A stretch of 64,000 bases of DNA, taken from a virus. The DNA lies in the IMG/VR virus record IMGVR_UViG_3300046782_000608, one strand, 5' to 3'. Under the pieces are notes generated by a model that was not told the origin of the DNA, ran no database searches, and saw only the letters and a list, made by a program, of their open reading frames with translations. The position numbers and the translations under genes are program-made. Of this stretch, positions 4,471-22,828 are shown in pieces. Every line of letters starts with the position of its first letter. Position 1 is the first letter of the stretch.

Positions 4471-4683
4471 GTCAGAACAATGTAGCGATGTTTTGGTAGT
4501 AGTACGTCAGAACAACGTAGCGACCCGTCAGAACAATGTAGCCGGGCGTCAGATCAATGCTAGTGGCCAATACAGGCGGTTGCTAACAAGGGGCGTCAGA
4601 ACAATGCAGGCGGTGTCAGAACAATGCAGGGACCAAACTAGGGGGTGCCAGAACAACGTAGCGGTTGGGGTGTCAGAACAATG
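4471..4683 (+). repeat. array of eight GTCAGAACAATG-type direct repeats (iteron-like)
   Basis: Copies start at 4471, 4506, 4527, 4548, 4595, 4615, 4647, 4672; spacings 35, 21, 21, 47, 20, 32, 25. Confidence 0.9.
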
Positions 4684-4705
4684 TAGCTATGTTTTGGATC
4701 AGCAA

Positions 4706-4928
4706 GTAAAAACCATACCATAAAACCACCTGTCAAAAGCCTATACAAGTCGAGGGGGCCGCCTCCCCAGTCTGCCAGAGGTGCCATACTAATAAAAAAA
4801 AAAAAATAATATAATACCCCCTATAGGGAGTATGGCGGTGGCCACCCAATCCAACCCACGTCAGGGTGCGGGCGACCCCCTAGACTTGACAACTGTTTTT
4901 CATTATGGTTTTATGCCCCTGTTTTTAC
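4706..4928. promoter_or_regulatory. 58-bp-arm imperfect inverted repeat around a poly-A tract and CCCTATAGGG palindrome (twin divergent promoter or origin element)
   Basis: Arms 4706-4763 and 4871-4928 align without gaps, 39/58 complementary by hand count. Confidence 0.7.
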
Positions 4929-4956
4929 AACTCTCAACTTATCTCAGGAACCCCCA

Positions 4957-5562
4957 ATGCGCCTAACTCAAGAACGAATAATCGCAATCATAGACTACGC
5001 AGTAAAATACAGCGACGCAATGATTGAAATTCGAGAGCGAATCGTCCCCGAACTACGACATATAAGTTCAACTCTAACCGACGGAACCCAAAAAGAAGCA
5101 ATTGATAACGTCTGTCTATTCATACTCAATCTAACCGAGATTGACATTACTGCTATAAGGGATCTTGCAATCGAAAAGGCCCATTTCAACTCAACCCGAA
5201 TTAAACATAACGAATATATGCGAAGCGCCTACTATCGTCGGAAAGCAAAAAACGCTCATAGCGCAAATCCTCTCGATTTAGGAATGGAATCACCAGGTAT
5301 CAATGACGATCCAATGGCAGCACAACGCGAAGTCTACCTAACTAATACCCGTCAGAACAATGAACATCCACGTCAGAACAATGTAGCTATAGAAGAAGTT
5401 CCACTCCTCGCTCGGATTGAAGCCCAAGCAGCCGAGTATGAAAAATCAAACCAGCCAACACAAAACTCCCCTTCCGAATCCGAGGAAGCCCTTAAAGCAA
5501 AATTCGGTCCCGACTTCCACCCACTTCCGGCCCGAGTTGGATTAAAAAGGAACCAAACCTAA
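4957..5562 (+). CDS. hypothetical protein, first early gene; contains two internal GTCAGAACAATG copies 21 bp apart
   Basis: 201-aa ORF with AGGA RBS; motif copies at 5351 and 5372. Confidence 0.7.
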   Translation: MRLTQERIIAIIDYAVKYSDAMIEIRERIVPELRHISSTLTDGTQKEAIDNVCLFILNLTEIDITAIRDLAIEKAHFNSTRIKHNEYMRSAYYRRKAKNAHSANPLDLGMESPGINDDPMAAQREVYLTNTRQNNEHPRQNNVAIEEVPLLARIEAQAAEYEKSNQPTQNSPSESEEALKAKFGPDFHPLPARVGLKRNQT

Positions 5563-5921
5563 TGGACAACCCCAAACCCGACCTCCAAGTTACCCCAATA
5601 TCTGATCCCAATCCTTGGATTCCAATTCAAAACCCCCTCGACCTAAAACACTTAGGCAAACTTATTGAAGAACTCAACGAAGCCGGCTCGGCAACCGCCC
5701 GTTGTATAATTCAAGGCATAGACGAGGTTGAACCTGTTACTAAAAAATCAAACCGCACTTGGCTTCAAGAAGAACTTGCCGATGTTATTGCAAACATAAA
5801 TCTGGTCATCGAGCATTTCAAACTTAACGTTCCTGCCATCGAAGCACGAATTGATCGCAAATACGACCATTTAAAGAAATGGCACAACATGCTAAACAAC
5901 GACGATCATAAGTTGGACTAA
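5562..5921 (+). CDS. MazG-like nucleotide pyrophosphohydrolase
   Basis: LGKLIEELNEA...LQEELADV, EExxE...ExxD metal-binding helices. Confidence 0.75.
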   Translation: MDNPKPDLQVTPISDPNPWIPIQNPLDLKHLGKLIEELNEAGSATARCIIQGIDEVEPVTKKSNRTWLQEELADVIANINLVIEHFKLNVPAIEARIDRKYDHLKKWHNMLNNDDHKLD

Positions 5922-5925
5922 AGCG

Positions 5926-6246
5926 ATGAGAACCCGTCGTTTCTTCAAAATAACCGAAATAGCTCTCCTGCGAAGATTAGCCGCCGAAGGAAAGTCTCAG
6001 AAGTTCTGCGCCGACCTCCTAGACCGAAATCCTGGAACCATCGCCCAAGCTGGGAAACGATACGGAATTTACTTCCATGCCACAACCGGAAGACCGAAAG
6101 CAACTGAAGCCGAACGCGCCGAACAACGCCAACGACGCGCCGACGCTTGCAGGCGGTGGCGAGCGAAACAAGGCGCCAAAGTAATGCCACAAATGGCTCG
6201 GTTCCCACAGATAGAACGGTTTGACGATCCCAGAGTAATGATCTAA
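5926..6246 (+). CDS. HTH domain protein
   Basis: LAAEGKSQKFCADLLDRNPGTI, HTH-like, plus a basic tail. Confidence 0.55.
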   Translation: MRTRRFFKITEIALLRRLAAEGKSQKFCADLLDRNPGTIAQAGKRYGIYFHATTGRPKATEAERAEQRQRRADACRRWRAKQGAKVMPQMARFPQIERFDDPRVMI

Positions 6247-6263
6247 AGAAGGATGTCAGAACA

Positions 6264-6401
6264 ATGAATGCCAATATCTCACACGAGGCTACAAGAGCTA
6301 AGCATAAAAAACTTATGAACATTTTAGGGACTATACAGATAATTCTCGTTGTAATATTATTAATATTAAAATTATATAATGCTTACCATCACACTTATTA
6401 G
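6264..6401 (+). CDS. 45-aa single-pass membrane peptide
   Basis: Hand-translated MNANISHEATRAKHKKLMNILGTIQIILVVILLILKLYNAYHHTY; ATG lies inside the GTCAGAACAATG motif; AAGGA RBS. Confidence 0.55.
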   Translation: MNANISHEATRAKHKKLMNILGTIQIILVVILLILKLYNAYHHTY

Positions 6402-6416
6402 AAAGACATCAGAACA

Positions 6417-6776
6417 ATGAACGCTCTCGATCGACGAATAAAGTATGCTCTAAACTACGTCGCCGATATGACCTATTGCGGCGCAGACGCCGAATGGCAT
6501 TTCAAGAAAGACTACAATCCCCAAATAGTCCTCGACACTATCGAAATACTAAAGCCTAATTCAACAATAAACATTGGAACCGAAACCACCATTTGCCCTC
6601 GATGCAATAACAAAGTCGAATATGACTTCATCATTAGTCGCGGATATTTCACTAACGGTAGAATCCTACCCTCCCTCGACTACGACCTAATCGCCGACAC
6701 CATATTCCATTCCGAATGTTGGAACAAACAGATAGAAGAGTTTCCGCCTGCATTTAATACAAAGATTGAAAAATAA
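6417..6776 (+). CDS. hypothetical protein with a CPRC motif
   Basis: ORF track; ATG inside the TCAGAACAATG motif. Confidence 0.6.
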   Translation: MNALDRRIKYALNYVADMTYCGADAEWHFKKDYNPQIVLDTIEILKPNSTINIGTETTICPRCNNKVEYDFIISRGYFTNGRILPSLDYDLIADTIFHSECWNKQIEEFPPAFNTKIEK

Positions 6777-6963
6777 ATAGTGCTAAGTGTGACAATTTTG
6801 CAACACAACCTGGGATTGAGTAGCCATCATTTTATTCAACTTATAATACTGCGAACTTTTGCCGCATAGCCATACCCCTTGTCCTTATGCTACCGTCTGG
6901 CTCGGGCGAATTCCGCCAGCACCCCACCCGGAACATTGTTCCGATAACATTGGAAACGCGCAA

Positions 6964-7203
6964 ATGACCGTTCCAAGTCTAAAATCCCAAAATGACGAAA
7001 AAGTCTACGTCAGAAAGCTCCGCCTAAACCAAGGCGGATATACAGACCGTGGAGATTACTACGGTACCGGTTTACCGTTATATGAGTGTTGGAATAATGA
7101 AATATACCAAACATTCCGCGCCGACGATCGTTCACATGCAATAGAGCAATTACGAGACTGTTACAAAGGCCAAGATATAAAAGTCTATAGGGAGGGCAAC
7201 TAA
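6964..7203 (+). CDS. conserved hypothetical phage protein (VRKLRLNQGGY..GDYYGTGLPLY)
   Basis: ORF track 6859..7203, start trimmed; TAATG coupling to the next gene. Confidence 0.6.
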   Translation: MTVPSLKSQNDEKVYVRKLRLNQGGYTDRGDYYGTGLPLYECWNNEIYQTFRADDRSHAIEQLRDCYKGQDIKVYREGN

Positions 7204-7916
7204 TGCCAGCCCCAATCCAAAGCCAACTAACAAATTCCTATCCCACCCCTCGGCAATTCTGGATTTATCGTATCCCCAGCTATATTCGGGGGAAAGATCC
7301 AAAGAATTACAAACCATCCCGCAAAGATGGGTTGCCAATGCTTTGTATTGGCCAATCAGCACAGCAAGCTCGCGAATCAATACGCCTTTTAAATGAAGGC
7401 CCGAACGAAACCCATTTTATTCGTATTCATAGAACCCCACTAGCCAATAACAAAAATTCCCGTCCAACCGGACATGGAATTGCCCGAAGTGAACCGCTTG
7501 CAGTTCCTGAGATTAACAAAACTCCAATTCCAATCCAAGGCCAACTAATAATCCAATGGGACGGAGCTACGCTTCGGGTAGAAGCTCCCGGTCGCAACGG
7601 TTCTCGGCAAAAAGTAGAGGGTGTTTACCTTTCCGACCTTCCACTTGAAATGCAACACTCCCTGCTTTCCCAAGTAGAAGATGCTCGCGACCGCAACCGG
7701 GCCGAACTCCTTGCAACCCAACGCGAAAACATTGCTTACGTTGCCGGCGCTCGGGGAATGGGCGTAGAATTCGCCCGCCAGATTTGGCCATCGGCTACCA
7801 TTACTTCCCGAACAATGCGCGCCCGATTGGCAAAAGCCGGCCAATATGATCCGATTTCCGGTAAAATCCGCGGCGAAACAAAGCCCCAGAAAGAAATCCT
7901 AGATCTGGACCTATAG
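7203..7916 (+). CDS. hypothetical protein, C-terminus KEILDLDL
   Basis: 237-aa ORF, GGAGG RBS. Confidence 0.75.
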   Translation: MPAPIQSQLTNSYPTPRQFWIYRIPSYIRGKDPKNYKPSRKDGLPMLCIGQSAQQARESIRLLNEGPNETHFIRIHRTPLANNKNSRPTGHGIARSEPLAVPEINKTPIPIQGQLIIQWDGATLRVEAPGRNGSRQKVEGVYLSDLPLEMQHSLLSQVEDARDRNRAELLATQRENIAYVAGARGMGVEFARQIWPSATITSRTMRARLAKAGQYDPISGKIRGETKPQKEILDLDL

Positions 7917-7932
7917 GGAGGCAAAGAACCAA

Positions 7933-8193
7933 ATGTTCCGCAAACAAATGATTCCGCCAATCTCAACTATCCATGCCGTTAAAGAGCTTCCACCCGGAAG
8001 CCAATCCCTTGCTGCCAATTCTGGCAACGCACTTCAGTTCTTCCTAGAACATACCAATCATCCAGACCAACATTTCGTCCAAATGATGCACGAAGCAATC
8101 TTATTCGGTTTCTTCATCTATCTCGGCAAGGACGCTCTTCAAATAACCCAACTCGGATATTTGTTCCTAACTCCCAAATCCAAAGGAAATTAG
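7933..8193 (+). CDS. hypothetical protein
   Basis: ORF track, GGGAGG RBS. Confidence 0.6.
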   Translation: MFRKQMIPPISTIHAVKELPPGSQSLAANSGNALQFFLEHTNHPDQHFVQMMHEAILFGFFIYLGKDALQITQLGYLFLTPKSKGN

Positions 8194-8194
8194 C

Positions 8195-8503
8195 ATGACC
8201 GATTTCATGACCGAACTTCCGCGCCGATTTCATGCCCGAGACAAAATCTCGCCCCAATTTACCCGAAGACATTACATTTGGCTCACAAATGCTATGCGCC
8301 AATTATTAAGCAATTTTACCGTCCCAGATAAAGATAACGTTTGGAAATCTGATGCAGAAGAAATTTCCAGTCATCAAACAGACTATTGGGCTGTACAACG
8401 AGGTATTGAAATCTTTGCTGAAATACTCGCAAACGACAACCCCCGTTTCAACAAACAGCAATTTCTCGATAACATCTTCAACCCAACTTCGGAGCCAAAG
8501 TAA
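8195..8503 (+). CDS. hypothetical phage protein with a DNPRFN..QFL motif
   Basis: ORF track; motif recurrent in phage early genes. Confidence 0.65.
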   Translation: MTDFMTELPRRFHARDKISPQFTRRHYIWLTNAMRQLLSNFTVPDKDNVWKSDAEEISSHQTDYWAVQRGIEIFAEILANDNPRFNKQQFLDNIFNPTSEPK

Positions 8504-8736
8504 TGACCGTTCGCCGAACAAAACATCCAATTACTGGCAATTTTGAAGATGCCATTTGGTTGGAAGATTATTTTGGAAGAACCCAAATTGGAATCAAATT
8601 CCAAAGCGGTGAAATTTTCCGCGCCGACGACCACGATTGGCAATTCTTATCTGAGGGAATTCCAATCAACTTTACTATCGCTCGAACCAATTCCAAAATA
8701 ATCGTACAATACAAGTCTGATCTCCCACAAGAATAG
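8503..8736 (+). CDS. hypothetical protein
   Basis: ORF track; TAATG coupling. Confidence 0.6.
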   Translation: MTVRRTKHPITGNFEDAIWLEDYFGRTQIGIKFQSGEIFRADDHDWQFLSEGIPINFTIARTNSKIIVQYKSDLPQE

Positions 8737-8748
8737 AAGGCAGTCCCT

Positions 8749-8988
8749 ATGACCAACAAAGTTTGGCAAACATCCGTCTACGGCAAATCCCACGGAACCA
8801 AGGGAACTTACCATTTCCGCAACCTAGCCGATGTTCTCAAATCGGTTAAAGAAACTTGGTCCAAAGGCACCGTCAGAAAACTAAACATGGCCGACAACTC
8901 CCACGTTTGGGTCTACGAAAACAATGCAGTTGCAGTCGAAGCAATCCAAATCGAGATAACCATCCTCGACAACTGGACCCATTTCTAA
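8749..8988 (+). CDS. hypothetical protein
   Basis: ORF track; GAAGG RBS. Confidence 0.55.
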   Translation: MTNKVWQTSVYGKSHGTKGTYHFRNLADVLKSVKETWSKGTVRKLNMADNSHVWVYENNAVAVEAIQIEITILDNWTHF

Positions 8989-9035
8989 ACCCCAAAAAGC
9001 CCCAAAATCGGGAAACGAGAAAGGACCGTTCCCAA

Positions 9036-10646
9036 ATGGCTGAATTCCCAATGGACACTTTCGAACTCGAAAAACAAATCCGGCTCTTAACCGGCAAAAC
9101 TGTCGGCCCGAACCCGCGCGGCACTCCCGAAATCAGTGTTCCGTTAGAACCGGAAGTCCGCGACCTACTAAAAGCTTGGCTAACCAGCCTCGGCGCTGAT
9201 AACAATAAAAGTGATGTTGGCCTAGCCCGTTGTTATTCCGCAGGCCGCCAATGGGTCCGCAAGCGCCTAGTTAGCGGTGGCAACCAACCAAAAGAAGACC
9301 GCCCAATAATCGAGCTTGGCGGCTTTGGTCAAAATTCACTCTTAGATACCAATGACTTCGGTGAAACAAAAGCCCCCGAAGTTGTTCCCAGCTCAGTTCC
9401 ACAACAAACAAAACCTTCCCAACCATCGCCATCATCCAATCTCGACGATCTAGTTCTCGCAACCCGCGTTCGCGAAGCAACAAAACAACTAACATCCCAA
9501 GTTGCCGAGGCCGTGCGGATCGAAACAGCCCGTCAGATCAATGCATTGGGACTTGGAACCAAACTAACATCCGAAATCAGCACCCTCGTAACCAATCTAA
9601 CATCCACACTGGCACATTCAGTCACAATGGATGCAATAAAAAACAACCTTCCAGTCCGCATTGAACTGCAACTCCCAAATCGGGAAATTCGCCCGCTTTC
9701 AGAAGAACCCCGACACGAGAAGTTTGGTCAAATCCTCCGCTACCTATCCCGAGGCCGCCACGTTTATGCGGTTGGCCCTGCCGGAACTGGCAAAACAAAG
9801 CTTGGCGAACAACTCGCGCAAGCGTTAGAATTGGACTTCTATCCACTCTCTCCCGCCCTAACTCGCTACGAAGCATCCGGCTACCAATCCGCCACCGGCG
9901 AATACATTGGAACCCATCTGCGACGCGCGATTGAATTCGGCGGCTTTGCACTTATCGACGAAGGCGACGCCTGGGCAGCCGCAGCAATGTTATTCCTAAA
10001 CGCTCCCCTTGCCAACGGCTACTGTACCTTCCCAGACAAAGTAATCAAAGTCCATCCCGACTTTCGTTGTATGATTGCAGCCAATACCTTTGGCCGTGGG
10101 GCGGATCGCCAATATGTTGGCAGAAATCCCCTCGACGCCGCATCCCGAAACCGGTTTAAGTTTGTAGAAATCGGTTACGACCGAAAGCTAGAAACTATCC
10201 TCTTCGGTTCCGGCCAATGGGTCCAATACTGTTGGCGGGTTCGCGAAGCTGTCGAAACCCTCCGACTCCAACACGTTATTTCAATGCGGAACATTGAACT
10301 TTGCGTGGAAGACGCAAAATACGGCGATCCAACCGAAGAAATCCTCGACGCCAACATCTGGCAAGGACTTGAACCCGACCAGATCAACAAAATAACAAAC
10401 ATCGCCGGGAAAATTGCGGTTGATAAAGTCCGTCAGAGCTACGACGGATTTATATCCAACCTAAAAGCCGGCAGCATTTCAGAAGCAACCAATATCTGGG
10501 CCAGTGAAATCGGTATTTCCTATTCCGAAGCAAAAGAATGGGTCGAGAACTGCGCCAACAAACCCCCATCATTCATTGAATGGAAAAATATGCGCGAATT
10601 AATCCTCGGCAACAAAGACAAATTTGACGACGAGGAGGCCGCATAG
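9036..10646 (+). CDS. MoxR/CobS-like AAA+ ATPase with a long N-terminal extension
   Basis: Walker A GPAGTGKT, Walker B ALIDEG, HPDFRCMIAANTFGRG, LDAASRNRF arginine finger; start moved to the ATG after GAAAGGA. Confidence 0.9.
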   Translation: MAEFPMDTFELEKQIRLLTGKTVGPNPRGTPEISVPLEPEVRDLLKAWLTSLGADNNKSDVGLARCYSAGRQWVRKRLVSGGNQPKEDRPIIELGGFGQNSLLDTNDFGETKAPEVVPSSVPQQTKPSQPSPSSNLDDLVLATRVREATKQLTSQVAEAVRIETARQINALGLGTKLTSEISTLVTNLTSTLAHSVTMDAIKNNLPVRIELQLPNREIRPLSEEPRHEKFGQILRYLSRGRHVYAVGPAGTGKTKLGEQLAQALELDFYPLSPALTRYEASGYQSATGEYIGTHLRRAIEFGGFALIDEGDAWAAAAMLFLNAPLANGYCTFPDKVIKVHPDFRCMIAANTFGRGADRQYVGRNPLDAASRNRFKFVEIGYDRKLETILFGSGQWVQYCWRVREAVETLRLQHVISMRNIELCVEDAKYGDPTEEILDANIWQGLEPDQINKITNIAGKIAVDKVRQSYDGFISNLKAGSISEATNIWASEIGISYSEAKEWVENCANKPPSFIEWKNMRELILGNKDKFDDEEAA

Positions 10647-10648
10647 CA

Positions 10649-10870
10649 ATGGCCAAGGCAATCATCTTATCAATCCATTCCGATCCAGAACGAAAGTTCC
10701 TCTACAAAGAGCGAATTCGTCAAACTCAACGTTCTTGGAAAGTCCATCGTAAAACAAAGTACCATCGCCTCGCCGGATTAAGAGCAAAAGACATACAACG
10801 GCTATTCAAATTCCTCGAAGCCAGCCGTCACCGTCAGAACAATGCACGCCCGAACAATAATTGGTGCTAG
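10649..10870 (+). CDS. small basic hypothetical protein
   Basis: ORF track; 2 nt after the ATPase stop. Confidence 0.45.
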   Translation: MAKAIILSIHSDPERKFLYKERIRQTQRSWKVHRKTKYHRLAGLRAKDIQRLFKFLEASRHRQNNARPNNNWC

Positions 10871-10906
10871 AATCAATGCCCGACGATAATATCATACCTC
10901 AGAACA

Positions 10907-11341
10907 ATGCCAACTCGGAGACCTTCAATGCCTTATACCGAAGCTAATCTTACTGTATTTCTTTGCACGCCTCATAAGCATGGAGATTTTAATTATGAAT
11001 TGATTAGGCGCATAGAGCAATATGGTTTTCAAGTTCTATGTGCAGCTACTCACAATCCGCAAAACCGTTCAAATAAAGACATTTTTGTAAGAAATGTTGA
11101 ATTGATTCAACAATCACATATATTTGTCGCGGTTTTAAAGGATTACGGTAAAGATCTTACATGGGAAGTAGGTATGGCATACGGTCAGAAAATACCAACA
11201 ATAGGACTAAATTACAATGCTCTCGAAACGGACGTAATGACTTACTATTCATTAGATAAAATTGTTAAACCGGAAGAACTTGAATTGACTCTAAAAGAGT
11301 TTAACAAAAGAATCCAATATCGGATGCATCGCGATGGATGA
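10907..11341 (+). CDS. nucleoside 2'-deoxyribosyltransferase / DNPH1-like (NDT family) protein
   Basis: VFLCTP...IFVRNVELIQQSHIFVAVL...DLTWEVGMAYGQKIPTI; AT-rich; ATG inside the motif. Confidence 0.8.
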   Translation: MPTRRPSMPYTEANLTVFLCTPHKHGDFNYELIRRIEQYGFQVLCAATHNPQNRSNKDIFVRNVELIQQSHIFVAVLKDYGKDLTWEVGMAYGQKIPTIGLNYNALETDVMTYYSLDKIVKPEELELTLKEFNKRIQYRMHRDG

Positions 11342-12845
11342 TAACGCTCCTCAGAACAATGAACAAACCCCCGCGACTGCGACTGCGACTGCGGACATTC
11401 TTGCGGAAGCAAACCTTTGGAATCCGCTCTGGGTTTACGATCTATTCCCAATCTACCAATCTTCTTGGAATCGGATGCCAATTGCCGGTGCCGATTTCGA
11501 AACTGAAAGTTCACATGAACCCCAACCAAACCCCGAACCAAATAACAACCCTGAACAAGATTCTTCTAACAGTCCTGACGACGAAGAGAATTCTGACGAT
11601 GAATCTAATAATAACACTGATGATAATGACGATGATAGCCCAGATGAACCTGGCGACGATCAATCTGATTCTGATGCTGATTCTTCTACTGATGACGACG
11701 ATAACAACACTAGCGAGTCTGGCGACGATGACGATACTGATGAAGATAGAAATGGCGATAGCGACGACGGCGACGAAGATAGCAACGACGAAATAGAACC
11801 TGAAGATCAGGATAACTCCGATGCTAATGATGAGGATGGACCTGATCTCGATCAAAACGAACCCAACGACGAACCGGATAACACTAACGATAGCGATAAT
11901 CTCGACGAAACCGATCCCGATCGAAGTAATGAATATTCTCTGGAAGAGCCAAAACACGTCGAACCCAACCCAATACCCGGCCTAACAATAATGCAAACCG
12001 ACGCCGGCCTAGAATACATTCGTGAATTTAATTCCTGGGAAGATTTCGTCGAATGCGCCGCCGACAAATCCCTCTATGGCTGGAAGCAAACCTGTGAAAG
12101 CCATAATCCAAAACAAGGAACCGCCGGTGCCGGCGCAACCTGGACTGAAGCAATAGAAATGGCCCGATACCGCGGTTGGCCCGAAGGCCGCGAACTACTC
12201 TCCGACCTACTAACCAACATCACCCAAAAGAGCGAAAACTTTGAAATCTGGGCCTTTGATGTAGCTGGAATGTTTCCGGTTGTTCCCGCATTCCTTTCCG
12301 GCGACCCCGCTTGTATGATTGTGGACCCCGGAACCGATCTACGAACCCAATTTCCAATTATCCGCATCGACTACAACCATGAAGTTTCCTGGAACATAAC
12401 TCCGCAAGACATGATGATACGCGGCGCGGCAGTCTTATCCCTTGCAAACAATCTCGAAGCCCACGGTTTCCAAACGGAACTTCGTATCATCGCCAATTCC
12501 CAAGCCTATATAGGCCGCAAACCCGCTATCTTCCGTTATTCTATAATCTACAAAAAGCCTGGTCAATTCCTCGATATTGATCGCGCTGCCTTTGCTCTGG
12601 CTCACCCTGCTTGTATGCGCAGACTTGGCTTTGCGCTTCTAGAACAACACGCCGAACTTGAAGCTGGTTTTAAAGACAGTTATGGCTCTCCACTCCATTC
12701 CTCAAATGACCCCGACTCCGGTTCTTTTGGAACAATCTTCATTCCCGGCAGCCTTGGCCGCGAAACCGAAGCCAAGTCCCGAACCGTCGTAATGGCTGCC
12801 GCAGAAGCAACAACCTCCGCTCTCGCAACCGCCGAAGCAGATTAG
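11334..12845 (+). CDS. VWA-like (CobT-like) partner of the MoxR ATPase with a long D/E/N-rich linker
   Basis: About 140-aa acidic low-complexity tract, then FDVAG.FP.VP.FLSGDP.CM...RGAAVLSL...LEAHGFQTEL...FALAHP.CMRRLGF; position next to the ATPase. Confidence 0.65.
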   Translation: MDDNAPQNNEQTPATATATADILAEANLWNPLWVYDLFPIYQSSWNRMPIAGADFETESSHEPQPNPEPNNNPEQDSSNSPDDEENSDDESNNNTDDNDDDSPDEPGDDQSDSDADSSTDDDDNNTSESGDDDDTDEDRNGDSDDGDEDSNDEIEPEDQDNSDANDEDGPDLDQNEPNDEPDNTNDSDNLDETDPDRSNEYSLEEPKHVEPNPIPGLTIMQTDAGLEYIREFNSWEDFVECAADKSLYGWKQTCESHNPKQGTAGAGATWTEAIEMARYRGWPEGRELLSDLLTNITQKSENFEIWAFDVAGMFPVVPAFLSGDPACMIVDPGTDLRTQFPIIRIDYNHEVSWNITPQDMMIRGAAVLSLANNLEAHGFQTELRIIANSQAYIGRKPAIFRYSIIYKKPGQFLDIDRAAFALAHPACMRRLGFALLEQHAELEAGFKDSYGSPLHSSNDPDSGSFGTIFIPGSLGRETEAKSRTVVMAAAEATTSALATAEAD

Positions 12846-14028: not shown

Positions 14029-14064
14029 GCCCCCTTATAGGGCATTCATAGGGAACTTAGAACA

Positions 14065-14613
14065 ATGAATGAACCAAAATCCCGTTCCTGCGGCTCATGT
14101 TTTGCATGTTGCATATTCTTAGGCATAGCCGAATTAAAAAAGTATCCAACCCAAAACTGCAAACACCTAGACGGTTCTCTTGGACCCAATACCCGATGCA
14201 GCATCTATTCTTCCCGTCCCGAACCCTGCTCACGATACCGTTGCGGTTATATTGACGGTATTGGTTCCGACGAATCTTTCCGCCCCGACAACTCGGGCGT
14301 CCTAATAACCACATACCCCGATCCAGATAAACCATTTCCACTATTCCACACAACCATAGTTATCTGTGACGCTAAAAAGGCCGGAACAATCAACGATGGC
14401 AAACTTAGCCAAATCATAAAATTAATCCTTGAAACCGAACTTTGCACGGCGCTAAATGTGGTAAATTACTCTACCCTCGAAGTAAACCATTTCAGAGACG
14501 GTAAAATCTACCTTGGCCGCCTAATAAAAACTCCCGAATACGAAGGTTTCAAATTCGTTGCAGAAAATAAACCATTCGGTTCATATATGGTTCTCTCTAT
14601 GGAGCAAAAATAA
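14065..14613 (+). CDS. YkgJ / CxxCxxCC family metal-cluster protein
   Basis: SCGSCFACC...CKHL...CSIYSSRPEPCSRYRC. Confidence 0.8.
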   Translation: MNEPKSRSCGSCFACCIFLGIAELKKYPTQNCKHLDGSLGPNTRCSIYSSRPEPCSRYRCGYIDGIGSDESFRPDNSGVLITTYPDPDKPFPLFHTTIVICDAKKAGTINDGKLSQIIKLILETELCTALNVVNYSTLEVNHFRDGKIYLGRLIKTPEYEGFKFVAENKPFGSYMVLSMEQK

Positions 14614-14789: not shown

Positions 14790-14805
14790 ATAGGGACTCA
14801 GAACA

Positions 14806-14913
14806 ATGAACCAACACTTCCACATGATACCCCGCCCCAATGATTTTATAAAAGCATATCTATTGATATTATTAATAGTATTAATCCTATCGATATTCGG
14901 ATTTTTTAAATAA
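14806..14913 (+). CDS. 35-aa single-pass membrane peptide
   Basis: MNQHFHMIPRPNDFIKAYLLILLIVLILSIFGFFK; ATG inside the motif, GGGA RBS. Confidence 0.5.
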   Translation: MNQHFHMIPRPNDFIKAYLLILLIVLILSIFGFFK

Positions 14914-15311: not shown

Positions 15312-15323
15312 GAGGCCGCCCCC

Positions 15324-16000: not shown

Positions 16001-16110
16001 CAAAGGCCCATCGCGATAGCGACCACCACAACCGATCCCGACCCCCAATCCCAATTCGCCCCCGAAGTCTTATCGTTGGTCAATGCAATGCTAGAAATAG
16101 GATAAATCAA

Positions 16111-16287: not shown

Positions 16288-16299
16288 GATTGATCTTCC

Positions 16300-16518: not shown

Positions 16519-16535
16519 AAAAGGAATCCATCCCA

Positions 16536-17012: not shown

Positions 17013-17212
17013 CCGCCCAACAACCAAGTTTAAAACCCAAACTGCTCGCGGTAGCAATGAATAAAACCACAAACCTATCTACCATCCACCAGCCCCGATT
17101 TAATTGGAAATCTTTCCGCTTCGAATTTCTATTCTGGACCCTCATTATAATCTCGCTTCCATCCTTCGGCTTCCTCCTTCTACGCATCATAACCAGGATC
17201 AACCTCCCATGA
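17009..17212 (+). CDS. small membrane protein
   Basis: FLFWTLIIISLPSFGFLLL segment; ATGA overlap. Confidence 0.5.
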   Translation: MTAQQPSLKPKLLAVAMNKTTNLSTIHQPRFNWKSFRFEFLFWTLIIISLPSFGFLLLRIITRINLP

Positions 17213-17430
17213 CCGACAAAGAACCTCAAGTAATCGTAAAGAAATCAGAATCAAAAACCGTAAGTTACATCTTTCCATTCCCTAAAATCGAAGCACTTAT
17301 AATTGCTCACGCAAAGGAGATTTTCCCTGAGTTTCAAGGATTTTCAGATCGTCAAATTAAAACCACTATTAAAGGTGAAGGCGAGGATACAGAAATTATC
17401 TTGTCCGCATTCAGGGAGAAAAGCTCATGA
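17209..17430 (+). CDS. hypothetical protein
   Basis: ORF track, start trimmed to the ATGA overlap. Confidence 0.55.
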   Translation: MTDKEPQVIVKKSESKTVSYIFPFPKIEALIIAHAKEIFPEFQGFSDRQIKTTIKGEGEDTEIILSAFREKSS

Positions 17431-17786
17431 TCGACGACACAATCCGAACCCTATTCGTCGCCGGCGATCTAGACGGAATTCTATACCAAATAGAAATCCT
17501 AATGGAAGACCGCGCCCGCGTCCGCGCTGAAAATGACGCCCACAAGCATACCATCCATCGCCTATCAGTCGCTTTCGCCAACATCACCGAACCAAAAACT
17601 GGCCTTCCAATCAAAAGCCCCAGCCCAAGCCCCAATCCAAGCCCAAAACCAACTACCCCCGTCAGAACAACGGGCGCAAAGCCCGGCGCAAAGCCCCAAC
17701 CAAAGCCCCCCGTCAGAACAATGAATCCACCCAAACCCAAACCAAGCAAAGAAGCTCTCGACCTAGACCTCGATCTCGACCTATAG
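17427..17786 (+). CDS. Pro/Lys-rich protein, C-terminus KEALDLDLDLDL
   Basis: ORF track; contains two motif copies (17661, 17711). Confidence 0.7.
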   Translation: MIDDTIRTLFVAGDLDGILYQIEILMEDRARVRAENDAHKHTIHRLSVAFANITEPKTGLPIKSPSPSPNPSPKPTTPVRTTGAKPGAKPQPKPPVRTMNPPKPKPSKEALDLDLDLDL

Positions 17787-17796
17787 GAAAACCCAC

Positions 17797-18045
17797 ATGC
17801 CCGCCACCGAACTAACCAAATCCCAAAAGTCCGCCCTTCTTTGGTTCCGCAACCGTGGCGGCGACGGAATGTTCAATTACAACGGAACCCTCGTCGCTGC
17901 TGGCCAATTGGCCCCTGTAATGCGATCAACATGGAACATCCTTAGAGATCAAGGTCTATTAGAATCATACAGCCGTCTTCGCCTCCGCGTAACAGAAGCC
18001 GGCCAAACAATCAACCTATCCGACGTTGAAGAATCCCACTACTAG
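17797..18045 (+). CDS. winged-helix-like hypothetical protein
   Basis: LTKSQ.SAL.W...STW..L...GLL...RLRVTEAG pattern. Confidence 0.55.
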   Translation: MPATELTKSQKSALLWFRNRGGDGMFNYNGTLVAAGQLAPVMRSTWNILRDQGLLESYSRLRLRVTEAGQTINLSDVEESHY

Positions 18046-18064
18046 CACAAGGTATGTCAGAACA

Positions 18065-18781
18065 ATGAACTCCACTAAAGACGAACACAGATTCGGCGAG
18101 GTTATGCGAGCCTCATTTGAAGCGGCACTTGAGATAAATGCAAGGACTGAAAGAGAACGCGACGCCGCGCGCATCGCCCTCGTGCAAGCGCAGACGGAGC
18201 GGGATGACGCTGACCGCCGGCTAAAACTTCAAGATGCCCTGCTCGCTCAACTTTCGGAGAAGGTTAATTTCTACGAGGTTCAATACCAAGATGAGCAAGG
18301 CTTGAACGGCGCCCGTGAGGAACGAGACGCGGCTCTGGCTGAAGTAGAACGATGCAGGCGTATGCAGGTGGCGGCGTATCAAGGACAATTGCGCAGCGAG
18401 ATCGCTCTCGCGGAAGCGCAGAGGAATGAAGAGCTATTAGCGCAACAGATTGTCGATCAAGCGGAAGCTCTCGGACAGGAGAAGGCCGAAGTACAAAGAC
18501 TTACTACCGTTCTCGCGGAGCGGGACGCGGAGATCGCCCGGCTGAAACACGCCGTTCAGCAGTTGGCGCAGGAGATCGAGAACGTCATGAGGCATAACGA
18601 AGCCCCGCCTGGCGCTAACGCGATGGAGATAGCCACAAATGTTGAGCAGGAATGGTATGCCGACCTACAAGACGGAGAGTTTCGTGTCCCTATCAAGATA
18701 AGACTACGCTTAATCGCTAAGATCGCCCGCGCCATCGAGGCCGCCGAAGCACGCGGGCGAGCTACCAACAAAGCAAAATAA
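18065..18781 (+). CDS. coiled-coil protein with atypical base composition
   Basis: ERDAA repeats; start moved to the ATG inside the motif at 18056-18067; G>C unlike its neighbours. Confidence 0.65.
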   Translation: MNSTKDEHRFGEVMRASFEAALEINARTERERDAARIALVQAQTERDDADRRLKLQDALLAQLSEKVNFYEVQYQDEQGLNGAREERDAALAEVERCRRMQVAAYQGQLRSEIALAEAQRNEELLAQQIVDQAEALGQEKAEVQRLTTVLAERDAEIARLKHAVQQLAQEIENVMRHNEAPPGANAMEIATNVEQEWYADLQDGEFRVPIKIRLRLIAKIARAIEAAEARGRATNKAK

Positions 18782-19167
18782 TGCCCCGTAAAAACCGCAC
18801 CATTCGTCTCTACAAAGAACAACAAGGTATCTGTTGGATATGCAGCCTTCCCATGTTTCCACCCCGTAAAAACCCTAAAACAAGAAATACACACCCATTC
18901 GAAGCAACACTAGATCACCTAGTTCCCAAACATGCTGACGGATTAAAGAACACCGCTCGTCCCGCGAAAGCCGCCCACGCAAAATGCAATAGTTCCCGCC
19001 ACCACTATCCAACATCCCACCCCGAAGTCGAACGCCACATTCAAAATATGCAAAACAAATTCAAAAATTCCAATCTTATTTCTGAGATAAACAAAGCTAG
19101 GTCCAAGTTCTTGGGTATGGCACCTGCCACCGAAACCACGCTTGCGCCGCCACCCTCACCATGCTAG
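18781..19167 (+). CDS. HNH endonuclease
   Basis: QQGICWIC...ATLDHLVP...AHAKCNSSR. Confidence 0.85.
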   Translation: MPRKNRTIRLYKEQQGICWICSLPMFPPRKNPKTRNTHPFEATLDHLVPKHADGLKNTARPAKAAHAKCNSSRHHYPTSHPEVERHIQNMQNKFKNSNLISEINKARSKFLGMAPATETTLAPPPSPC

Positions 19168-19176
19168 GCTCCCCAT

Positions 19177-19413
19177 ATGGCACCCACTCTTGTATCAAAA
19201 GCAATGCCAAACAATCCTACAAAACGCCCAACCCCCGAAGACTTAGAAAGGATCAGAGAATTCCAGCTATCTATGGCCAGAACCGCCAGAGAAGCTAGCT
19301 TTGCAATGGAACGTCTAACGCGCGCCCTGACTGCCGGCGCTGCCGCGTTCCAAAAAGCCTTCGAAAAAGAAATAAACCGCAAACGAAAAGTAAGGAACAA
19401 TCCCAATGTCTGA
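19177..19413 (+). CDS. hypothetical protein
   Basis: ORF track. Confidence 0.5.
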   Translation: MAPTLVSKAMPNNPTKRPTPEDLERIREFQLSMARTAREASFAMERLTRALTAGAAAFQKAFEKEINRKRKVRNNPNV

Positions 19414-19732
19414 ACAACCAAACATCCCAACCCCAGAATACCATCCCAACGCTCTCCTGCTAGAGCTAACATTCAACGACCACGGCCATCTAATCGTCCG
19501 CATCCCCGACTCCATGTCCCAACGCGGCGGCAAAGTAACCCTAAGCCCCGGTTCCGTTGAAGCCCAACTCCGCAACATTCTCGACGTTGAAAACAAAATC
19601 AAAAAACACGAAGCGGCTTTCTACGGCGAACCAGGCGTCCGCGATCTGGCCCGCGATCTAAAAGCTGGTCGAATAAAAACAACCCGGATCGAGAAATCCA
19701 CCGCCCCGCTCGAACTCGATCTGGACCTATAA
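19406..19732 (+). CDS. hypothetical protein, C-terminus PLELDLDL
   Basis: ORF track, AAGGA RBS. Confidence 0.7.
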   Translation: MSEQPNIPTPEYHPNALLLELTFNDHGHLIVRIPDSMSQRGGKVTLSPGSVEAQLRNILDVENKIKKHEAAFYGEPGVRDLARDLKAGRIKTTRIEKSTAPLELDLDL

Positions 19733-19992
19733 GTTGGCTTGGTACAACCTTCCAATACTCCGAAGTACCCCCTTAGCAAAACAACGCCAAGAGGACGAAG
19801 AATATTCCAAATGGCTCGAAAGCGAAAAAGATCAATCAGAATGGCCAGAATGGGTTTATTCTCGTTGGCAAGCTGATATGTATGATACTTATGGAGGAAG
19901 ATAAGGTGAGCTACTTGGGTGTGCGATGGAAGATGCACTTAAAGAGGGAAACACAGTGAACCAACCCCGCCCGGACGGCAAAGGAAGATAAA

Positions 19993-20304
19993 GTGAGCGT
20001 TGTAACCGGAGTTACTCTTCATTTCAAAGAAAACTACACAGAGTCCGTTCTCCCGAAAATAAATTCTTGGCTTAGTGACCACGAATTTGGACCGCTGATT
20101 CCAGTAGAAAAACATTACGGAGGCAACAAACATCCTCAAATAATGCTATGCGGCGCGGGGTATAATTTCTTCTCCTGCGAAGAAGATTTTATCAATTTCA
20201 TAACCAAAGAATTATATTGGGACCACGATGAAAATCTAGTTTTAATCATAAATTCCGAGGATGGTCCAGCTAAAGTTTATAGAAAGGACTATACCCATGC
20301 ATGA
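19993..20304 (+). CDS. hypothetical protein
   Basis: ORF track, AAGGAAG RBS. Confidence 0.6.
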   Translation: MSVVTGVTLHFKENYTESVLPKINSWLSDHEFGPLIPVEKHYGGNKHPQIMLCGAGYNFFSCEEDFINFITKELYWDHDENLVLIINSEDGPAKVYRKDYTHA

Positions 20305-21010
20305 TCCACTAACCCAAGCTTTTCGCATCGGCAACTTCATAACAATCTGGCACAAAGACCCACTCAACTTCAAAGGCAAAGTTTGCCGGCGCGACGATGA
20401 TAGTTGCGGCTGGTTCACTCCCCCATATCCAATTTCCGAAAAAGAAAAGATCGAAAAACTCTCCGCTTCTCAATATCGCGAAATCTTTGCTCGTCAAGTA
20501 GCAGTTCGCGAAGACAAAAGTTACGCCTACATTTGCAACGAACCAGACTGTCGCAGCGCGATTTATTGGTCCTGGCGCGCCATCAAACACCATTACAAAC
20601 CCCGCACCGTTTGGCAATACGGTTGCAAATTAACTCTATCCGAACTCGAACATATTTATTCCCTCGCAACCTGCCCCGTTGATAACCTGCAAACTACTTT
20701 CCAACAAGTCAAAGACCCCGAAACATTTCAGAATTTCTTTTTCCTCGTATTCGCGGCATACTTGCGTCATTCCCGCCCTTGGTATCGCCACCCACGTTGG
20801 CATTTCTGGCATTGGCAAATCCAAATCCACCCCATCCAAACCTTCAAACGTTGGGCCTTCTCTCGCTGCGCTACTTGTAGCAAACGTTTCTCCTATGGCT
20901 ATTCGCCAGTAACTAATTCTTGGGATGGAACCGGACCGCGTTGGTTCCGATCCGAATCCGACGTTCACCATTCCAATTGCATCAATTATTCTGGAACCCC
21001 AAAGTCATGA
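20297..21010 (+). CDS. hypothetical Trp/His/Cys-rich protein
   Basis: ORF track, start trimmed to MHDPLT. Confidence 0.65.
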   Translation: MHDPLTQAFRIGNFITIWHKDPLNFKGKVCRRDDDSCGWFTPPYPISEKEKIEKLSASQYREIFARQVAVREDKSYAYICNEPDCRSAIYWSWRAIKHHYKPRTVWQYGCKLTLSELEHIYSLATCPVDNLQTTFQQVKDPETFQNFFFLVFAAYLRHSRPWYRHPRWHFWHWQIQIHPIQTFKRWAFSRCATCSKRFSYGYSPVTNSWDGTGPRWFRSESDVHHSNCINYSGTPKS

Positions 21011-21279
21011 TTACCAAACGCCTCCCAATCGATGAACTTATCGACCGCGAAGCCCACAAGCTCGCCCTGGCCGACTACATGCAGGAGAAAAACATAACCC
21101 CCAATAAAAACCTTCCACCCGATATCGAATCCCAAATCCAAACCCTCCTATCCACAACCGACGCCTACCACATCATTGCAAAGCAAAACATCCTAGCCCA
21201 AAAGGCCGCACACGATGAAGCGCTCCGCGCCATCGGTCTAAACCCGATTGAAGTTGATGCAATGGACCTCGATCTATGA
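21007..21279 (+). CDS. hypothetical protein, C-terminus EVDAMDLDL
   Basis: ORF track, start trimmed to the ATGA overlap. Confidence 0.65.
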   Translation: MITKRLPIDELIDREAHKLALADYMQEKNITPNKNLPPDIESQIQTLLSTTDAYHIIAKQNILAQKAAHDEALRAIGLNPIEVDAMDLDL

Positions 21280-21398
21280 CCCTCGGCGACGGAATAGCAA
21301 TTGTAGGCATAGCAGCAAGTATCGCAGCTATTCTAATCGTCCGAATAGTTTTGGATTATTTTTATACCAAAATTAACCTAGGTCTAAAAAAGGAATAA
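21276..21398 (+). CDS. 40-aa single-pass membrane peptide
   Basis: Hand-translated MTLGDGIAIVGIAASIAAILIVRIVLDYFYTKINLGLKKE; ATGA overlap. Confidence 0.5.
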   Translation: MTLGDGIAIVGIAASIAAILIVRIVLDYFYTKINLGLKKE

Positions 21399-21580
21399 GA
21401 TCAAATGGACCTCAACACCGACCCACTAAAGAAACAAGCCGAAGCTGAACTTGGACACCCAATTCCAAACGAATATTGGACCAAAGAAGTAAGAGATTTC
21501 TATAAAATCTGGTTCCACGGACGAAACTACGGTGCCGAGGGAACATTTGGAATGATCTGCGGCATCGAGGACTTAAAGCG

Positions 21581-21763
21581 ATGAACAAATACGACCAAGC
21601 CAACCTGGCCGCCCTAAAACGAATACAAGTAATTATTCGTGAATCCTATCCTTATCCCGAAGATGCAGAAGCTGAATTTCCAGATTTAACTCTAGCACTT
21701 GGCATAATTCTCGGAACAGCTGAATATGCTATCCGTGAAATCGAGAAGGAACTAAAATCATGA
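21581..21763 (+). CDS. hypothetical protein
   Basis: ORF track, GAGGA RBS. Confidence 0.55.
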   Translation: MNKYDQANLAALKRIQVIIRESYPYPEDAEAEFPDLTLALGIILGTAEYAIREIEKELKS

Positions 21764-21957
21764 AAAAAGTAACCCTCCGTGTCGATCCAGATGACTACGA
21801 ATATCTCCGCAAAATGGCCGAATCCAAGTTCGACTACGGCGGCCTCAATCTAATCATTCGCCAAGTCCTCCACGCCTTCGTTATCAATACCAAAGCTCTC
21901 GAACAAAAACACCATCAACAACAACAACAAGCTCCAGTTGCCGCCGAAGGAAACTAA
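21760..21957 (+). CDS. ribbon-helix-helix-like DNA-binding protein
   Basis: KKVTLRVDPDDYEYLRKMA...LNLIIRQVL. Confidence 0.6.
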   Translation: MKKVTLRVDPDDYEYLRKMAESKFDYGGLNLIIRQVLHAFVINTKALEQKHHQQQQQAPVAAEGN

Positions 21958-21961
21958 AAGC

Positions 21962-22168
21962 ATGGCTAACAACACCGAAATAAATCCTCTTCAAGCCAAA
22001 TTAACTCCATACGTCACCGCATTAAAACATTCCGCAGACACAGGAAATGCAAAAGCTAAACAAGTGATTTCTCTTTATAAGATGTATACACAGTGTCCAG
22101 AAGTCGGCGCAGCAACTCTATGTGAAGCTTTCTTAGAAGATTGGAAGAAAGAAACAGACAATGTCTGA
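21962..22168 (+). CDS. hypothetical protein
   Basis: ORF track, start trimmed. Confidence 0.55.
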   Translation: MANNTEINPLQAKLTPYVTALKHSADTGNAKAKQVISLYKMYTQCPEVGAATLCEAFLEDWKKETDNV

Positions 22169-22412
22169 AAACTATTCCGTTTGTCAGTTCTTCGAAGATG
22201 GCAATTACGAATTCGTGCGCCGATTTATATCTCCCGAAGAAGCCGTGAATGTCGCAATTCATTATTCAACTAGCATTGCAGCCAAAAACCACATGGTAAC
22301 CCGTGTAATAATAACCGACAGCGGCGACCAATGTAATTGGGAATGGAAATTCGATGAAGGAATTACCTTTCCCCCACAATTCGTGGGAAAATTAAAGCGA
22401 GGAATTCGATAA
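22161..22412 (+). CDS. conserved hypothetical phage protein (SVCQFFEDG...RVIITDSGD...EW)
   Basis: ORF track; family recalled from rhizobial phages. Confidence 0.65.
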   Translation: MSENYSVCQFFEDGNYEFVRRFISPEEAVNVAIHYSTSIAAKNHMVTRVIITDSGDQCNWEWKFDEGITFPPQFVGKLKRGIR

Positions 22413-22828
22413 TGCCAACCAACACTGGCGGCTTTGGCGGTGTAAGTGTCGGCAAACCAACCGATACAACCCCCACCCCCAAACCAAAACCCAATGAAAA
22501 CCTAACCGCGTCCCTACGCGCAACCCTTCAAATAGTCAAAGCCGAAGACGAAGACGATTCCGATCCAATCCCATCCCCGCTTAACGAAGCAACTCCCGAT
22601 TCCGTAAACATTCTTCTCGACCGCATTAACAACCATATGATTGAAGGTAAAATCCTCACCGACGCCGACCTACGGCTCGGGATTGATCTATATCGTTCCC
22701 AAGCACTCCGCTATGCCCAAGAACAAGAAACCAAAAAACCGCGCGCTCGATCCGGGGCTAAATCAACACTAAAGCAAGTTCTCGATCTCGACGATCTCGA
22801 TTTCGACGCGCCGGCCTCAGAACAATGA
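22412..22828 (+). CDS. hypothetical protein with near-terminal KQVLDLDDLDF
   Basis: ORF track; TAATG coupling. Confidence 0.7.
   Translation: MPTNTGGFGGVSVGKPTDTTPTPKPKPNENLTASLRATLQIVKAEDEDDSDPIPSPLNEATPDSVNILLDRINNHMIEGKILTDADLRLGIDLYRSQALRYAQEQETKKPRARSGAKSTLKQVLDLDDLDFDAPASEQ

Follow-up and report, generated by a model that had tools for sequence, protein, structure and literature searches.

A strand-locked 13-nt word arrayed upstream of the early operon and fused to gene starts in an uncultured soil phage, tentatively read as a protein-binding site

The locus described here raises one question: why does a short asymmetric word recur on a single strand of a phage genome, both as a non-coding array and across the start codons of early genes? 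The window, meaning the whole stretch of DNA that was analysed, comprises 64,000 nucleotides of IMG/VR record IMGVR_UViG_3300046782_000608 and is ∼64 kb of the ∼73.5-kb genome of an uncultured soil/rhizosphere phage. Near-identical contigs end 710 nt to the left of the window start and near 72.8 kb, which gives the ∼73.5-kb genome size and places ∼9.5 kb outside the window. A first-pass annotation, made from the letters and their open reading frames (ORFs), had described the word as a nucleic-acid signal serving either as an operator or translational control site, or as a recombination handle for gene cassettes.

The window was scanned on both strands for the 11-mer TCAGAACAATG. Seventeen exact copies were found, all on the + strand, against 0.02 expected, and none of 100 shuffled sequences reached this count. 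Sixteen of them, the number reported at first pass, lie within 4472-22827; the sole exact copy then overlooked is at 48392 in a late gene. Allowing up to one mismatch gave 24 copies on the + strand and 1 on the − strand (1.13 expected overall), and the − strand held no exact copy. The + strand family numbers ∼24, being made up of the 17 exact copies, 5 with one mismatch and the two-mismatch copies at 4648 and 47429. Copies within the rightward early genes are co-directional with transcription, and the leftward early operon of the window carries none. The near-absence of the word from late genes, on which the first-pass annotation had relied, held except for the 47429 variant and the 48392 copy. 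These two share the absolute orientation of all other family copies. The exact 48392 copy is retained in relatives G001 and G002, and G001, which spans the remaining late region, has no additional copy there. Motif copies occupy all three frames, being read as RQNN at 5352/5373, VRTM at 10834/17713 and SEQ-stop at 22817. The constraint therefore lies on the nucleic acid, as had been proposed.

Pooling 40 array copies from five lineages gave the full element, an asymmetric 13-nt consensus YG-TCAGAWCAAYG with (T/C)AG after it in most copies. In the pool there is essentially no variation at positions −1 to +10. Copies at start codons run on as ATGAAY. Inverted repeats, promoter hexamers and hairpins are absent from the 13-nt word, whose flanks lack conservation. 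Two variants recur in the array of each lineage, one ending ...AACG followed by TAGCGAT and one reading ...GATC..., and these are matched by genic variants at 17662 and 9533, respectively. The 9533 variant is retained in L064 and not in the L074 homologue.

The five lineages comprise the window, a sister strain and three more distant relatives. The sister strain, type B (L064, L067 and L069, plus G002 further right), was found by exact-protein look-ups and is 96-98% identical to the window, but mosaic. L072, L074 and L075 were reached via homologues of gene 1, the first early gene, and of the first leftward gene, encoding a 154-aa protein; relative to the window these are 49% and 73-77% identical, respectively. 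The distant lineages are represented by short contigs of 4-8 kb. The window, L064, L072, L074 and L075 keep the identical word beside proteins that are 49-77% identical, and share one layout: the leftward 154-aa gene, a GC-rich non-coding stretch with an alternating-CG block, an (ACW)n tract, the array and a rightward promoter. As the five form one clade, this agreement shows conservation and not independent origin. Four further relatives, L129-L132 (152-aa leftward protein 52-61% identical), share genes and an AT-rich control core; they have no tract, array or motif, and no other over-represented word. Array and scattered copies are thus present together and absent together, which makes them one system, as the first-pass annotation had supposed. 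A further contig, L077, encodes a 154-aa protein 66% identical to that of the window, and no tract or motif occurs within 1.1 kb beside the gene (1-1110). Its other repeats are ATCATTTCGCA..AT, ACATTTCCC and long A runs, and a different word may be used in this lineage.

The array of the window (4472-4683) contains five exact copies and three variants in the unit YG-TCAGAWCAAYG-(T/C)AG, and its end copies bear an extended GTAGCGATGTTTTGG tail. Arrays of 7-10 copies stand at the equivalent place in all five lineages. Neighbouring copies are 17-47 nt apart, most often 21 nt (10/35 intervals), and strains differ in this spacing by −26 and +6. Between window and type B, a diverged mosaic segment takes in the right part of the array. 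Over 4518-4683, motif columns were the same at 64 positions and different at 2, whereas spacer columns were the same at 53, different at 21 and gapped at 32 (Fisher p = 5e-5). Both motif-column differences turn a degenerate copy into a consensus one, and 10/10 listed strain single-nucleotide polymorphisms within the array sit in spacers. A pair of copies inside gene 1 is retained in three lineages, 21 nt apart in the window and L064 and 27 nt apart in L072, and the residue preceding the pair varies among R, P and C. By these comparisons, the selected unit is the word itself and neither the array geometry nor the encoded peptide. As the word is invariant while proteins fall to 49% identity and spacers drift, recognition by some factor would be needed.

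The ATG of the word opens seven ORFs of the window, at 6264 (45 aa), 6417 (119 aa), 10907 (144 aa), 14065 (182 aa), 14806 (35 aa), 18065 (238 aa) and 22825 (322 aa). The first-pass annotation had named these same starts, and two are uncertain: database calls begin the 10907 gene at 10928, and the 14806 ORF is absent from gene calls. Across lineages, at least 12 different genes begin at a motif ATG, namely the seven of the window, one in type B (an extra 65-aa ORF), two in L072 (one via a one-mismatch copy) and two in L074, where a third copy opens merely a three-codon ORF. In ordinary genes of the phage, the ATG is preceded at 6-9 nt by an AAGGAA or GGGAGG box. In motif-led genes the Shine-Dalgarno (SD) box, where present, precedes the word by 1-4 nt, and the SD-to-ATG spacer is thus taken up by the word. 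Followed by A, the word also supplies a TGA stop in the upstream frame (SEQ-stop); the resulting ATGA overlap occurs at 22817, at L072:4100 and twice in L074. The 6417-type gene starts at TCAGAGCAATG (one mismatch) in L072, at an exact motif in L074 and at a degenerate copy in type B. Apart from this gene, the motif-carrying genes differ between lineages. GC outliers make up 4/8 motif-linked ORFs (28, 29, 36 and 55.5%, against 47 +/- 4.8% for other early ORFs), in keeping with the earlier remark that several are compositionally foreign. The 6417-type gene family has a Cys/His-rich C-terminus. A motif-led ORF at L074:2480-2680 (− strand) encodes two CxxCxGxG motifs, a DnaJ-type zinc-finger pattern.

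Indels and replacements between relatives were collected over 4.7-23 kb from the window, the type B contigs and contigs of four metagenome runs. Nine events were obtained, of which 4/9 have at least one end no more than 22 nt from a copy (p = 0.002, random placement). By breakpoint, 6/18 lie within 22 nt of a copy (p = 0.0004). The excess near copies would be modest if any gene boundary were taken as the null. The replaced left promoter arm begins 15 nt past the last array copy, and the replaced right arm with the gene 1 N-terminus ends 6 nt before the 5352 copy, within the gene. Type B lacks the 45-aa ORF 6264-6401, which the copies at 6256 and 6409 enclose, and carries its 65-aa ORF between copies of the 10834-10909 cluster, where an exact copy replaces a degenerate one of the window and starts the extra ORF. 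In motif-less L129 the AAA_5 and DUF7192 genes are adjacent, 37 nt apart; the window has two ORFs between them, the second of which (36% GC) is flanked by the copies at 10899 and 11351. Two low-GC ORFs are arranged as motif-ORF-motif cassettes. The loss junction of the 45-aa ORF in type B retains a degenerate copy, diverges from 6250 on and is not a clean site-to-site product.

The remaining 5/9 events are not at a copy, so the breakpoint prediction of the recombination-handle reading proposed at first pass holds for the four events near copies, the 45-aa cassette missing from the sister strain among them, and not for the others. One of the latter removes 19726-21006, a segment absent from type B and G002, which have 8 other letters in its place. 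An HNH endonuclease match was obtained for one of 45 early ORFs scanned; if this ORF is the 249-aa one in 19726-21006, the segment would represent a polymorphic homing endonuclease of the free-standing type. Diverged genomes share identical islands only at the copies, where recombination can be expected to resolve. Thirteen letters are too few to persist as homology alone, and recombination is therefore treated as a by-product. Operator and handle, offered earlier as alternatives, are in this respect not mutually exclusive, the 13-nt word being identical at 49% protein identity.

The region between array and gene 1 was compared across the same lineages; all promoter statements here are consensus matches only. 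The control core holds A13, TAATATAAT and a hairpin. Its right arm carries TTGACA-17-TTTTAT, reading into the 4957 gene. The core is conserved and both arms are replaced in type B and L072, and a similar core occurs in L129. The AT-rich core lies at 4780-4856 in the window, is found also in L064, L072 and L129:7090-7230, and is flanked by inverted GCCATAC/GTATGGC. The promoter-like arms resemble each other within a genome and differ between genomes, and in type B are exchanged along with the N-terminal half of gene 1. Arms and gene 1 N-terminus together look like a specificity module, in which a protein domain is swapped with its two sites. The early promoter of all five lineages is sigma-70-like and rightward, with TTGACA or a close variant, a 16-17 nt spacer and TAnnnT. 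The last array copy lies ∼33 nt from the −35 in L074, 108 nt in L075 and 200-240 nt in the window and L072. A promoter scan of the five lineages gave no conserved sigma-70-like promoter through the array in either direction, and no RNA runs with the early region or array were listed.

The (ACW)n tract occupies an equivalent position in L064, L072, L074 and L075 and is absent from motif-less L129. In the window it is ∼250 nt long with almost no G on the + strand and a three-base periodicity (ACT/ACA), and could be an unwinding element or a single-strand binding track. The next gene after the array encodes AAA_25 in L074, and helix-turn-helix (HTH) plus primase-like proteins in L075. From its layout, a tract and array between divergent operons, together with the replication-type genes of L074/L075, would fit an iteron-like origin. 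The non-coding region, variable elsewhere, keeps in all lineages a further block, TATAAGGAAC followed by ∼15 nt of alternating CG/CA (window 3872-3898, L072 about 1676-1700, L074 and L075). Alternating CG/CA is prone to left-handed DNA, and in the window forms a hairpin with a T-run.

The reading tentatively preferred, as the leading possibility and short of a probable one, is that the word is a 13-nt cis-site for one sequence-specific protein acting on DNA, recombination at the copies being a by-product. One protein of the phage clade would recognise the asymmetric YG-TCAGAWCAAYG, most likely on double-stranded DNA. It would load on the 7-10-site cluster in the non-coding control/origin-like region, between the (ACW)n tract and the early promoter. 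The same protein may bind the single sites along the rightward early operon and exert an orientation-dependent damping there, like the L5-type repressor at stoperators. Single sites would sit on start codons for want of space, since in a tightly packed operon an 11-mer with a terminal ATG could be fitted nowhere but in the 8-nt SD-ATG spacer. The unit of site plus ATG (with a following A giving the TGA stop) would then travel with accessory ORFs, and recombination resolving at copies would yield the motif-ORF-motif cassettes and mosaic junctions. DNA is favoured as the target since the array lies upstream of the early promoter in all lineages and no conserved promoter runs through it.

Several observations weigh against this reading. 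As the promoter calls are consensus matches, the array's apparent lack of transcription is weak evidence. No binder was identified, and Pfam/PHROGs scans of ∼65 ORFs of the window returned no repressor, integrase or RegA-like family and no sign of a temperate lifestyle. No copy overlies promoter hexamers, and the distances of 33-240 nt make classical operator occlusion unlikely. Since the word stands in an exact start register and on some genes of the operon only, it agrees better with translational control of individual genes than with transcriptional roadblocks, by which the replication genes further downstream would be shut off as well. Stoperators flip with transcription direction, and the two copies in the late gene do not. 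None of the candidate binders listed at first pass gained support: 5926..6246 has no counterpart in the homologous L072 stretch, 2359..2559 is also kept by motif-less relatives, and 27347..27877 gave weak HTH matches and nothing further in its favour. The predicted structure of the conserved 154-aa leftward protein had a predicted local distance difference test score (pLDDT) of 56 and was unusable. Atlas look-ups for this protein and for gene 1 gave nothing above noise, and a profile search with the 154-aa protein found 9 relatives in 1.8 billion proteins, none with a Pfam domain.

The same start register suggests an RNA-level translational operator, an unlikely account that nevertheless ranks first among the rivals. 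A phage RNA-binding protein would read UCAGAACAAUG in the translation initiation regions of early mRNAs, and the sense array would act as a CsrB-like decoy. Every copy is indeed sense to the early operon, the start-codon register is fixed in at least 12 genes with the SD, where present, 9-10 nt upstream, start-codon copies extend as ATGAAY, merely a subset of operon genes has the motif, and irregular array spacing with free spacers resembles decoy RNAs. Against it, no conserved rightward promoter lies upstream of the array; the one good promoter match, at 4297-4324, lacks its final T in type B and is absent from L072 and L074. The L074 array abuts the early promoter with no terminator between, the conserved intragenic copies of the gene 1 pair have no initiation site to control, and no RegA or CsrA family match was found among the scanned ORFs.

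The next alternative, a passive linker without any trans-acting factor, is distinctly unlikely. Here a good initiation context would have spread by illegitimate recombination and selection for viable junctions, with the array as a tandem-duplication relic. The 21-nt modal unit and shared TAGCGAT tail suggest tandem duplication, the window 10834-10909 cluster corresponds to the type B exact copies around the 65-aa ORF, and gene boundaries host breakpoints anyway. A relic would hardly account for a word that stays invariant at 49-77% protein identity while array spacers change, for an array of 7-10 copies at a constant place in five lineages, for the gene 1 pair conserved in three lineages, or for a mosaic junction (5346) inside a gene, beside a copy.

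Dedicated cassette recombination is more doubtful still. The 13-mer would be the core site of an unrecognised recombinase moving promoterless ORFs, and the array its binding platform. An integron-like capture device in an apparently lytic phage, in which the site itself gives the upstream stop and the downstream start and both site and enzyme would be wholly unlike those of integrons, is similarly improbable. Foreign-GC, variable motif-ORF-motif units (the 45-aa ORF, the type B 65-aa ORF and the deoxyribosyltransferase-like gene), the strictly direct orientation of copies and the enrichment of breakpoints near them speak for such a device. The word gives both a stop and a start (SEQ-stop/ATGA), so a cassette swap would stay viable. 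However, no integrase, transposase or serine recombinase match was found in the ∼65 ORFs, most events (5/9) are away from copies, the junction left by the 45-aa ORF is not a clean site-to-site product, and the array copies are under selection, yet have no cassette between them.

Least probable of all is antisense control, by which a leftward leader through the array, bearing 8 copies of CAUUGUUCUGA, would pair with early mRNA starts and silence them when the late operon fires: the array-side arm has leftward promoter-like hexamers in L072 as well as in the window and type B, the control region has every late gene downstream of it on the − strand, late mRNA would also bear both outlying copies in antisense and the array variants AACG/GATC are mirrored at 17662/9533, but no leftward promoter is recognisable between the array and the early promoter of L074 and L075, the left-arm hexamers of the window score 8/12, below the scan threshold, 11-nt pairing is short and the intragenic targets are left unexplained.

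Other candidates were considered and dropped. No tRNA or Rfam element was found. A T7-type or late-sigma promoter was discarded because the ATG is a real start codon, which puts the word in the leader and not at −10, and a leaderless promoter because no TANNNT lies upstream. Chi, KOPS or uptake sequences were rejected, the word being too long, start-linked and seen in no host genome. Pseudo-ribosome sites in the array were set aside as the G-runs upstream of copies are missing in L074, Dam-site selection behind the GATC variant as GATC is neither avoided nor enriched genome-wide, and Rho loading on the CA tract as it has almost no YC dinucleotides.

The analogies drawn at first pass, to the start-associated sequences (SAS) of cluster K mycobacteriophages and to stoperators, proved apt on comparison. 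SAS number ∼10-20 per genome, nearly all in one orientation, in the non-structural arm and tied to a subset of starts; known in mycobacteriophages since 2011, they were still unexplained in function in 2025 (PMC3203893; PMC12699233). By this comparison the SAS is the closest known analogue, with a shared logic of an orientation-locked gene-start word. Both are short, asymmetric, conserved words in one orientation, nearly all copies lying outside structural genes and at a subset of gene starts, and both are kept across sub-lineages. The sequence is unrelated, however: the SAS (GGGATAGGAGCCC) takes in the SD and precedes the start by a few bases, whereas the word described here excludes the SD and contains the start codon. 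It adds an upstream array of 7-10 copies and conserved intragenic copies, none of the extended SAS (ESAS)-type inverted repeats were noticed, and host and phage group are unrelated.

Cluster A stoperators are asymmetric 13-mers bound by a monomeric repressor of the L5 gp71 type and active in one orientation only, an established DNA-level mechanism (PMC9283540). The likeness lies in the 13-nt asymmetric site, the >20 copies and, for the early copies here, the link between orientation and transcription; cluster A phages have no multi-copy array, in contrast to the present phage (PMC9283540, PMC6550527). In the stoperator system one site overlaps the early promoter and orientation follows transcription, whereas here there is no overlap and the late copies are unflipped. 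Cluster A phages are temperate with an immunity repressor; in the window no repressor or integrase match was obtained among ∼65 ORFs.

Regulatory repeats that act as mobile cassettes are described for the promoter early stem-loop (PeSL) elements of T4-type phages (PMC2839356, PMC4122927). The treatment of recombination as a by-product of conserved islands and viable-junction selection follows what is proposed for PeSL (PMC2839356). PeSL repeats also flank variable small early ORFs, and indels between relatives end at repeats, as here; they are composite promoter plus terminator elements and much longer, whereas the present word is 11-13 nt, has no hexamers or stem-loop and carries a start codon.

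Iteron origins of plasmids and lambdoid phages consist of direct repeats beside an A+T-richer tract, and the lambda ori lies inside gene O. The resemblance here lies in the ∼21-nt modal pitch, the strand-asymmetric tract, the divergent units and the copies in the first downstream gene. Iterons do not explain about a dozen start-fused copies over 18 kb, and the spacing is irregular (17-47 nt). No initiator was identified among the ORFs scanned, and an origin role is suggested by arrangement.

T4 RegA operators cover the AUG of several early mRNAs and are loosely conserved, and CsrB is a multi-copy decoy. RegA sites are not known to be accompanied by a decoy array. Common to RegA/Csr and the present system are a site over the AUG (seven window genes and at least five in relatives) and an irregular multi-copy array; the differences are that neither a RegA/CsrA homologue nor a conserved sense promoter for the array was found. 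Integrons combine the tyrosine recombinase IntI with attI and hairpin-forming attC, whereas here no recombinase match was obtained and the 13-nt motif has no inverted repeat. By defining features the motif falls outside the SAS, stoperator, PeSL, iteron, RegA/Csr and integron families.

Novel here are a start codon enclosed by the word, an array conserved upstream and cassette polymorphisms that occur naturally, and SAS-like logic is now seen in unrelated uncultured soil phages. Testing is made easier by the start codon within the word, by the array as probe or competitor and by strain pairs differing in motif-bounded ORFs. If one factor binds both array and gene starts, it would define a compact early-gene regulon and a "plug" for expressing acquired genes. 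Were the word a site of recombination, it would offer phages a new way to capture genes.

Table 1. Features of the window discussed in the text (v, variant copy).
Feature	Position	Strand	Details
Small leftward genes	235-3462	-	
Non-coding region	3463-4956		1.5 kb
G-free (ACW)n / ACTACA tract	4190..4440	+	directly upstream of array; repeat families D1, D2, D5
Array, 8 copies	4470..4697	+	4472, 4507v, 4528, 4549v, 4596, 4616, 4648v, 4673
Control region	4706..4928	.	two inverted promoter-like arms around conserved core; inverted repeat I1/I2
Rightward early/replication arm	4957-40656	+	
Gene 1 intragenic pair	5352..5383	+	21 nt apart, in first early gene 4957..5562, read RQNN
Copy, start of 45-aa ORF 6264..6401	6256..6266	+	28% GC; left cassette end
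Copy, start of 119-aa ORF 6417..6776	6409..6419	+	right end of 45-aa cassette
Variant TCAGATCAATG	9533..9543	+	inside AAA+ gene; identical variant to array copy 4549
Mini-cluster	10834..10909	+	exact 10834, degenerate ~10849 and ~10869, exact 10899; ATG of 10899 opens deoxyribosyltransferase-like ORF, 36% GC
Copy, codons 6-9 of 503-aa DUF7192 gene	11351..11361	+	not a start; right boundary of two-gene insert 10649-11333
Variant TTAGAACAATG	14057..14067	+	ATG starts 182-aa ORF; exact in type B
Copy, start of 35-aa hydrophobic ORF	14798..14808	+	29% GC
Intragenic pair	17662..17723	+	17662 variant AACG, 17713 exact; near 3' end of ORF 17427..17786
Copy, start of 238-aa ORF	18057..18067	+	55.5% GC
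Copy, stop of ORF 22412..22828 and start of 322-aa exonuclease-like gene	22817..22827	+	SEQ-stop, ATGA overlap
Leftward structural genes	from 40.7 kb onward	-	portal gene 62628-63992
Outlying pair	47429..48402	+	47429 CGTCAGATCAACG, 48392 exact; inside - strand late gene 46173..48788

Many metagenome runs from soil and rhizosphere contain the phage sequence. When 4-24 kb was compared with cultured phages by megablast, no match was obtained, so that there is no cultured relative at the DNA level, and searches with the portal and AAA+ proteins found distant relatives only. The early arm carries MazG-like, AAA+, exonuclease-like, split PolA, primase-helicase, thymidylate synthase and ribonucleotide reductase genes. 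A metagenome scan with the MazG-like protein returned 46 loci that have only this gene in common with the window, all motif-free. Scanning a genome collection for paired copies gave 48 loci, all unrelated tandem repeats, with no prophage and no host clue.

IMG/VR was scanned with a 16-mer, which gave single chance matches only, and for two copies 5-30 nt apart, which gave four unrelated records. One of these, G003 (L014:6540-6800), is an unrelated AT-rich phage with four TCAGAACA words between a divergent HTH-type gene and early genes. Two of the four are the full 11-mer, 21 nt apart, and the cluster is operator-like. Records G004 and G006 also carry the 21-nt pair.

Across the window (1-64000), C exceeds G on the + strand over rightward and leftward blocks alike, and the cumulative skew falls steadily from the left. 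The negative GC skew of both gene blocks is thus independent of transcription direction. GTAC and GANTC are found at 0.26 and 0.49 of their expected frequencies, respectively. A palindrome GGAAC-N3-GTTCC lies at 6926-6944, ∼30 nt upstream of a conserved gene (start at 6964). The non-coding gap around it also has a TATAAT-like hexamer, and the palindrome contains the motif half GAACAATG. It is found also at L072:5063-5079 and near 1858 in L073, with arms conserved and the central triplet flipped between lineages, and may serve a dimeric regulator as its operator at an internal promoter. A second junction sequence was noted where early genes end in ...DLDL-stop via GAYCTNGACCTATAG, followed directly by GGGAGG (7180-7203, 7915-7933, 17780-17797 and 19715-19734). 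One strain indel (19725/21007) ends at such a DLDL-stop junction.

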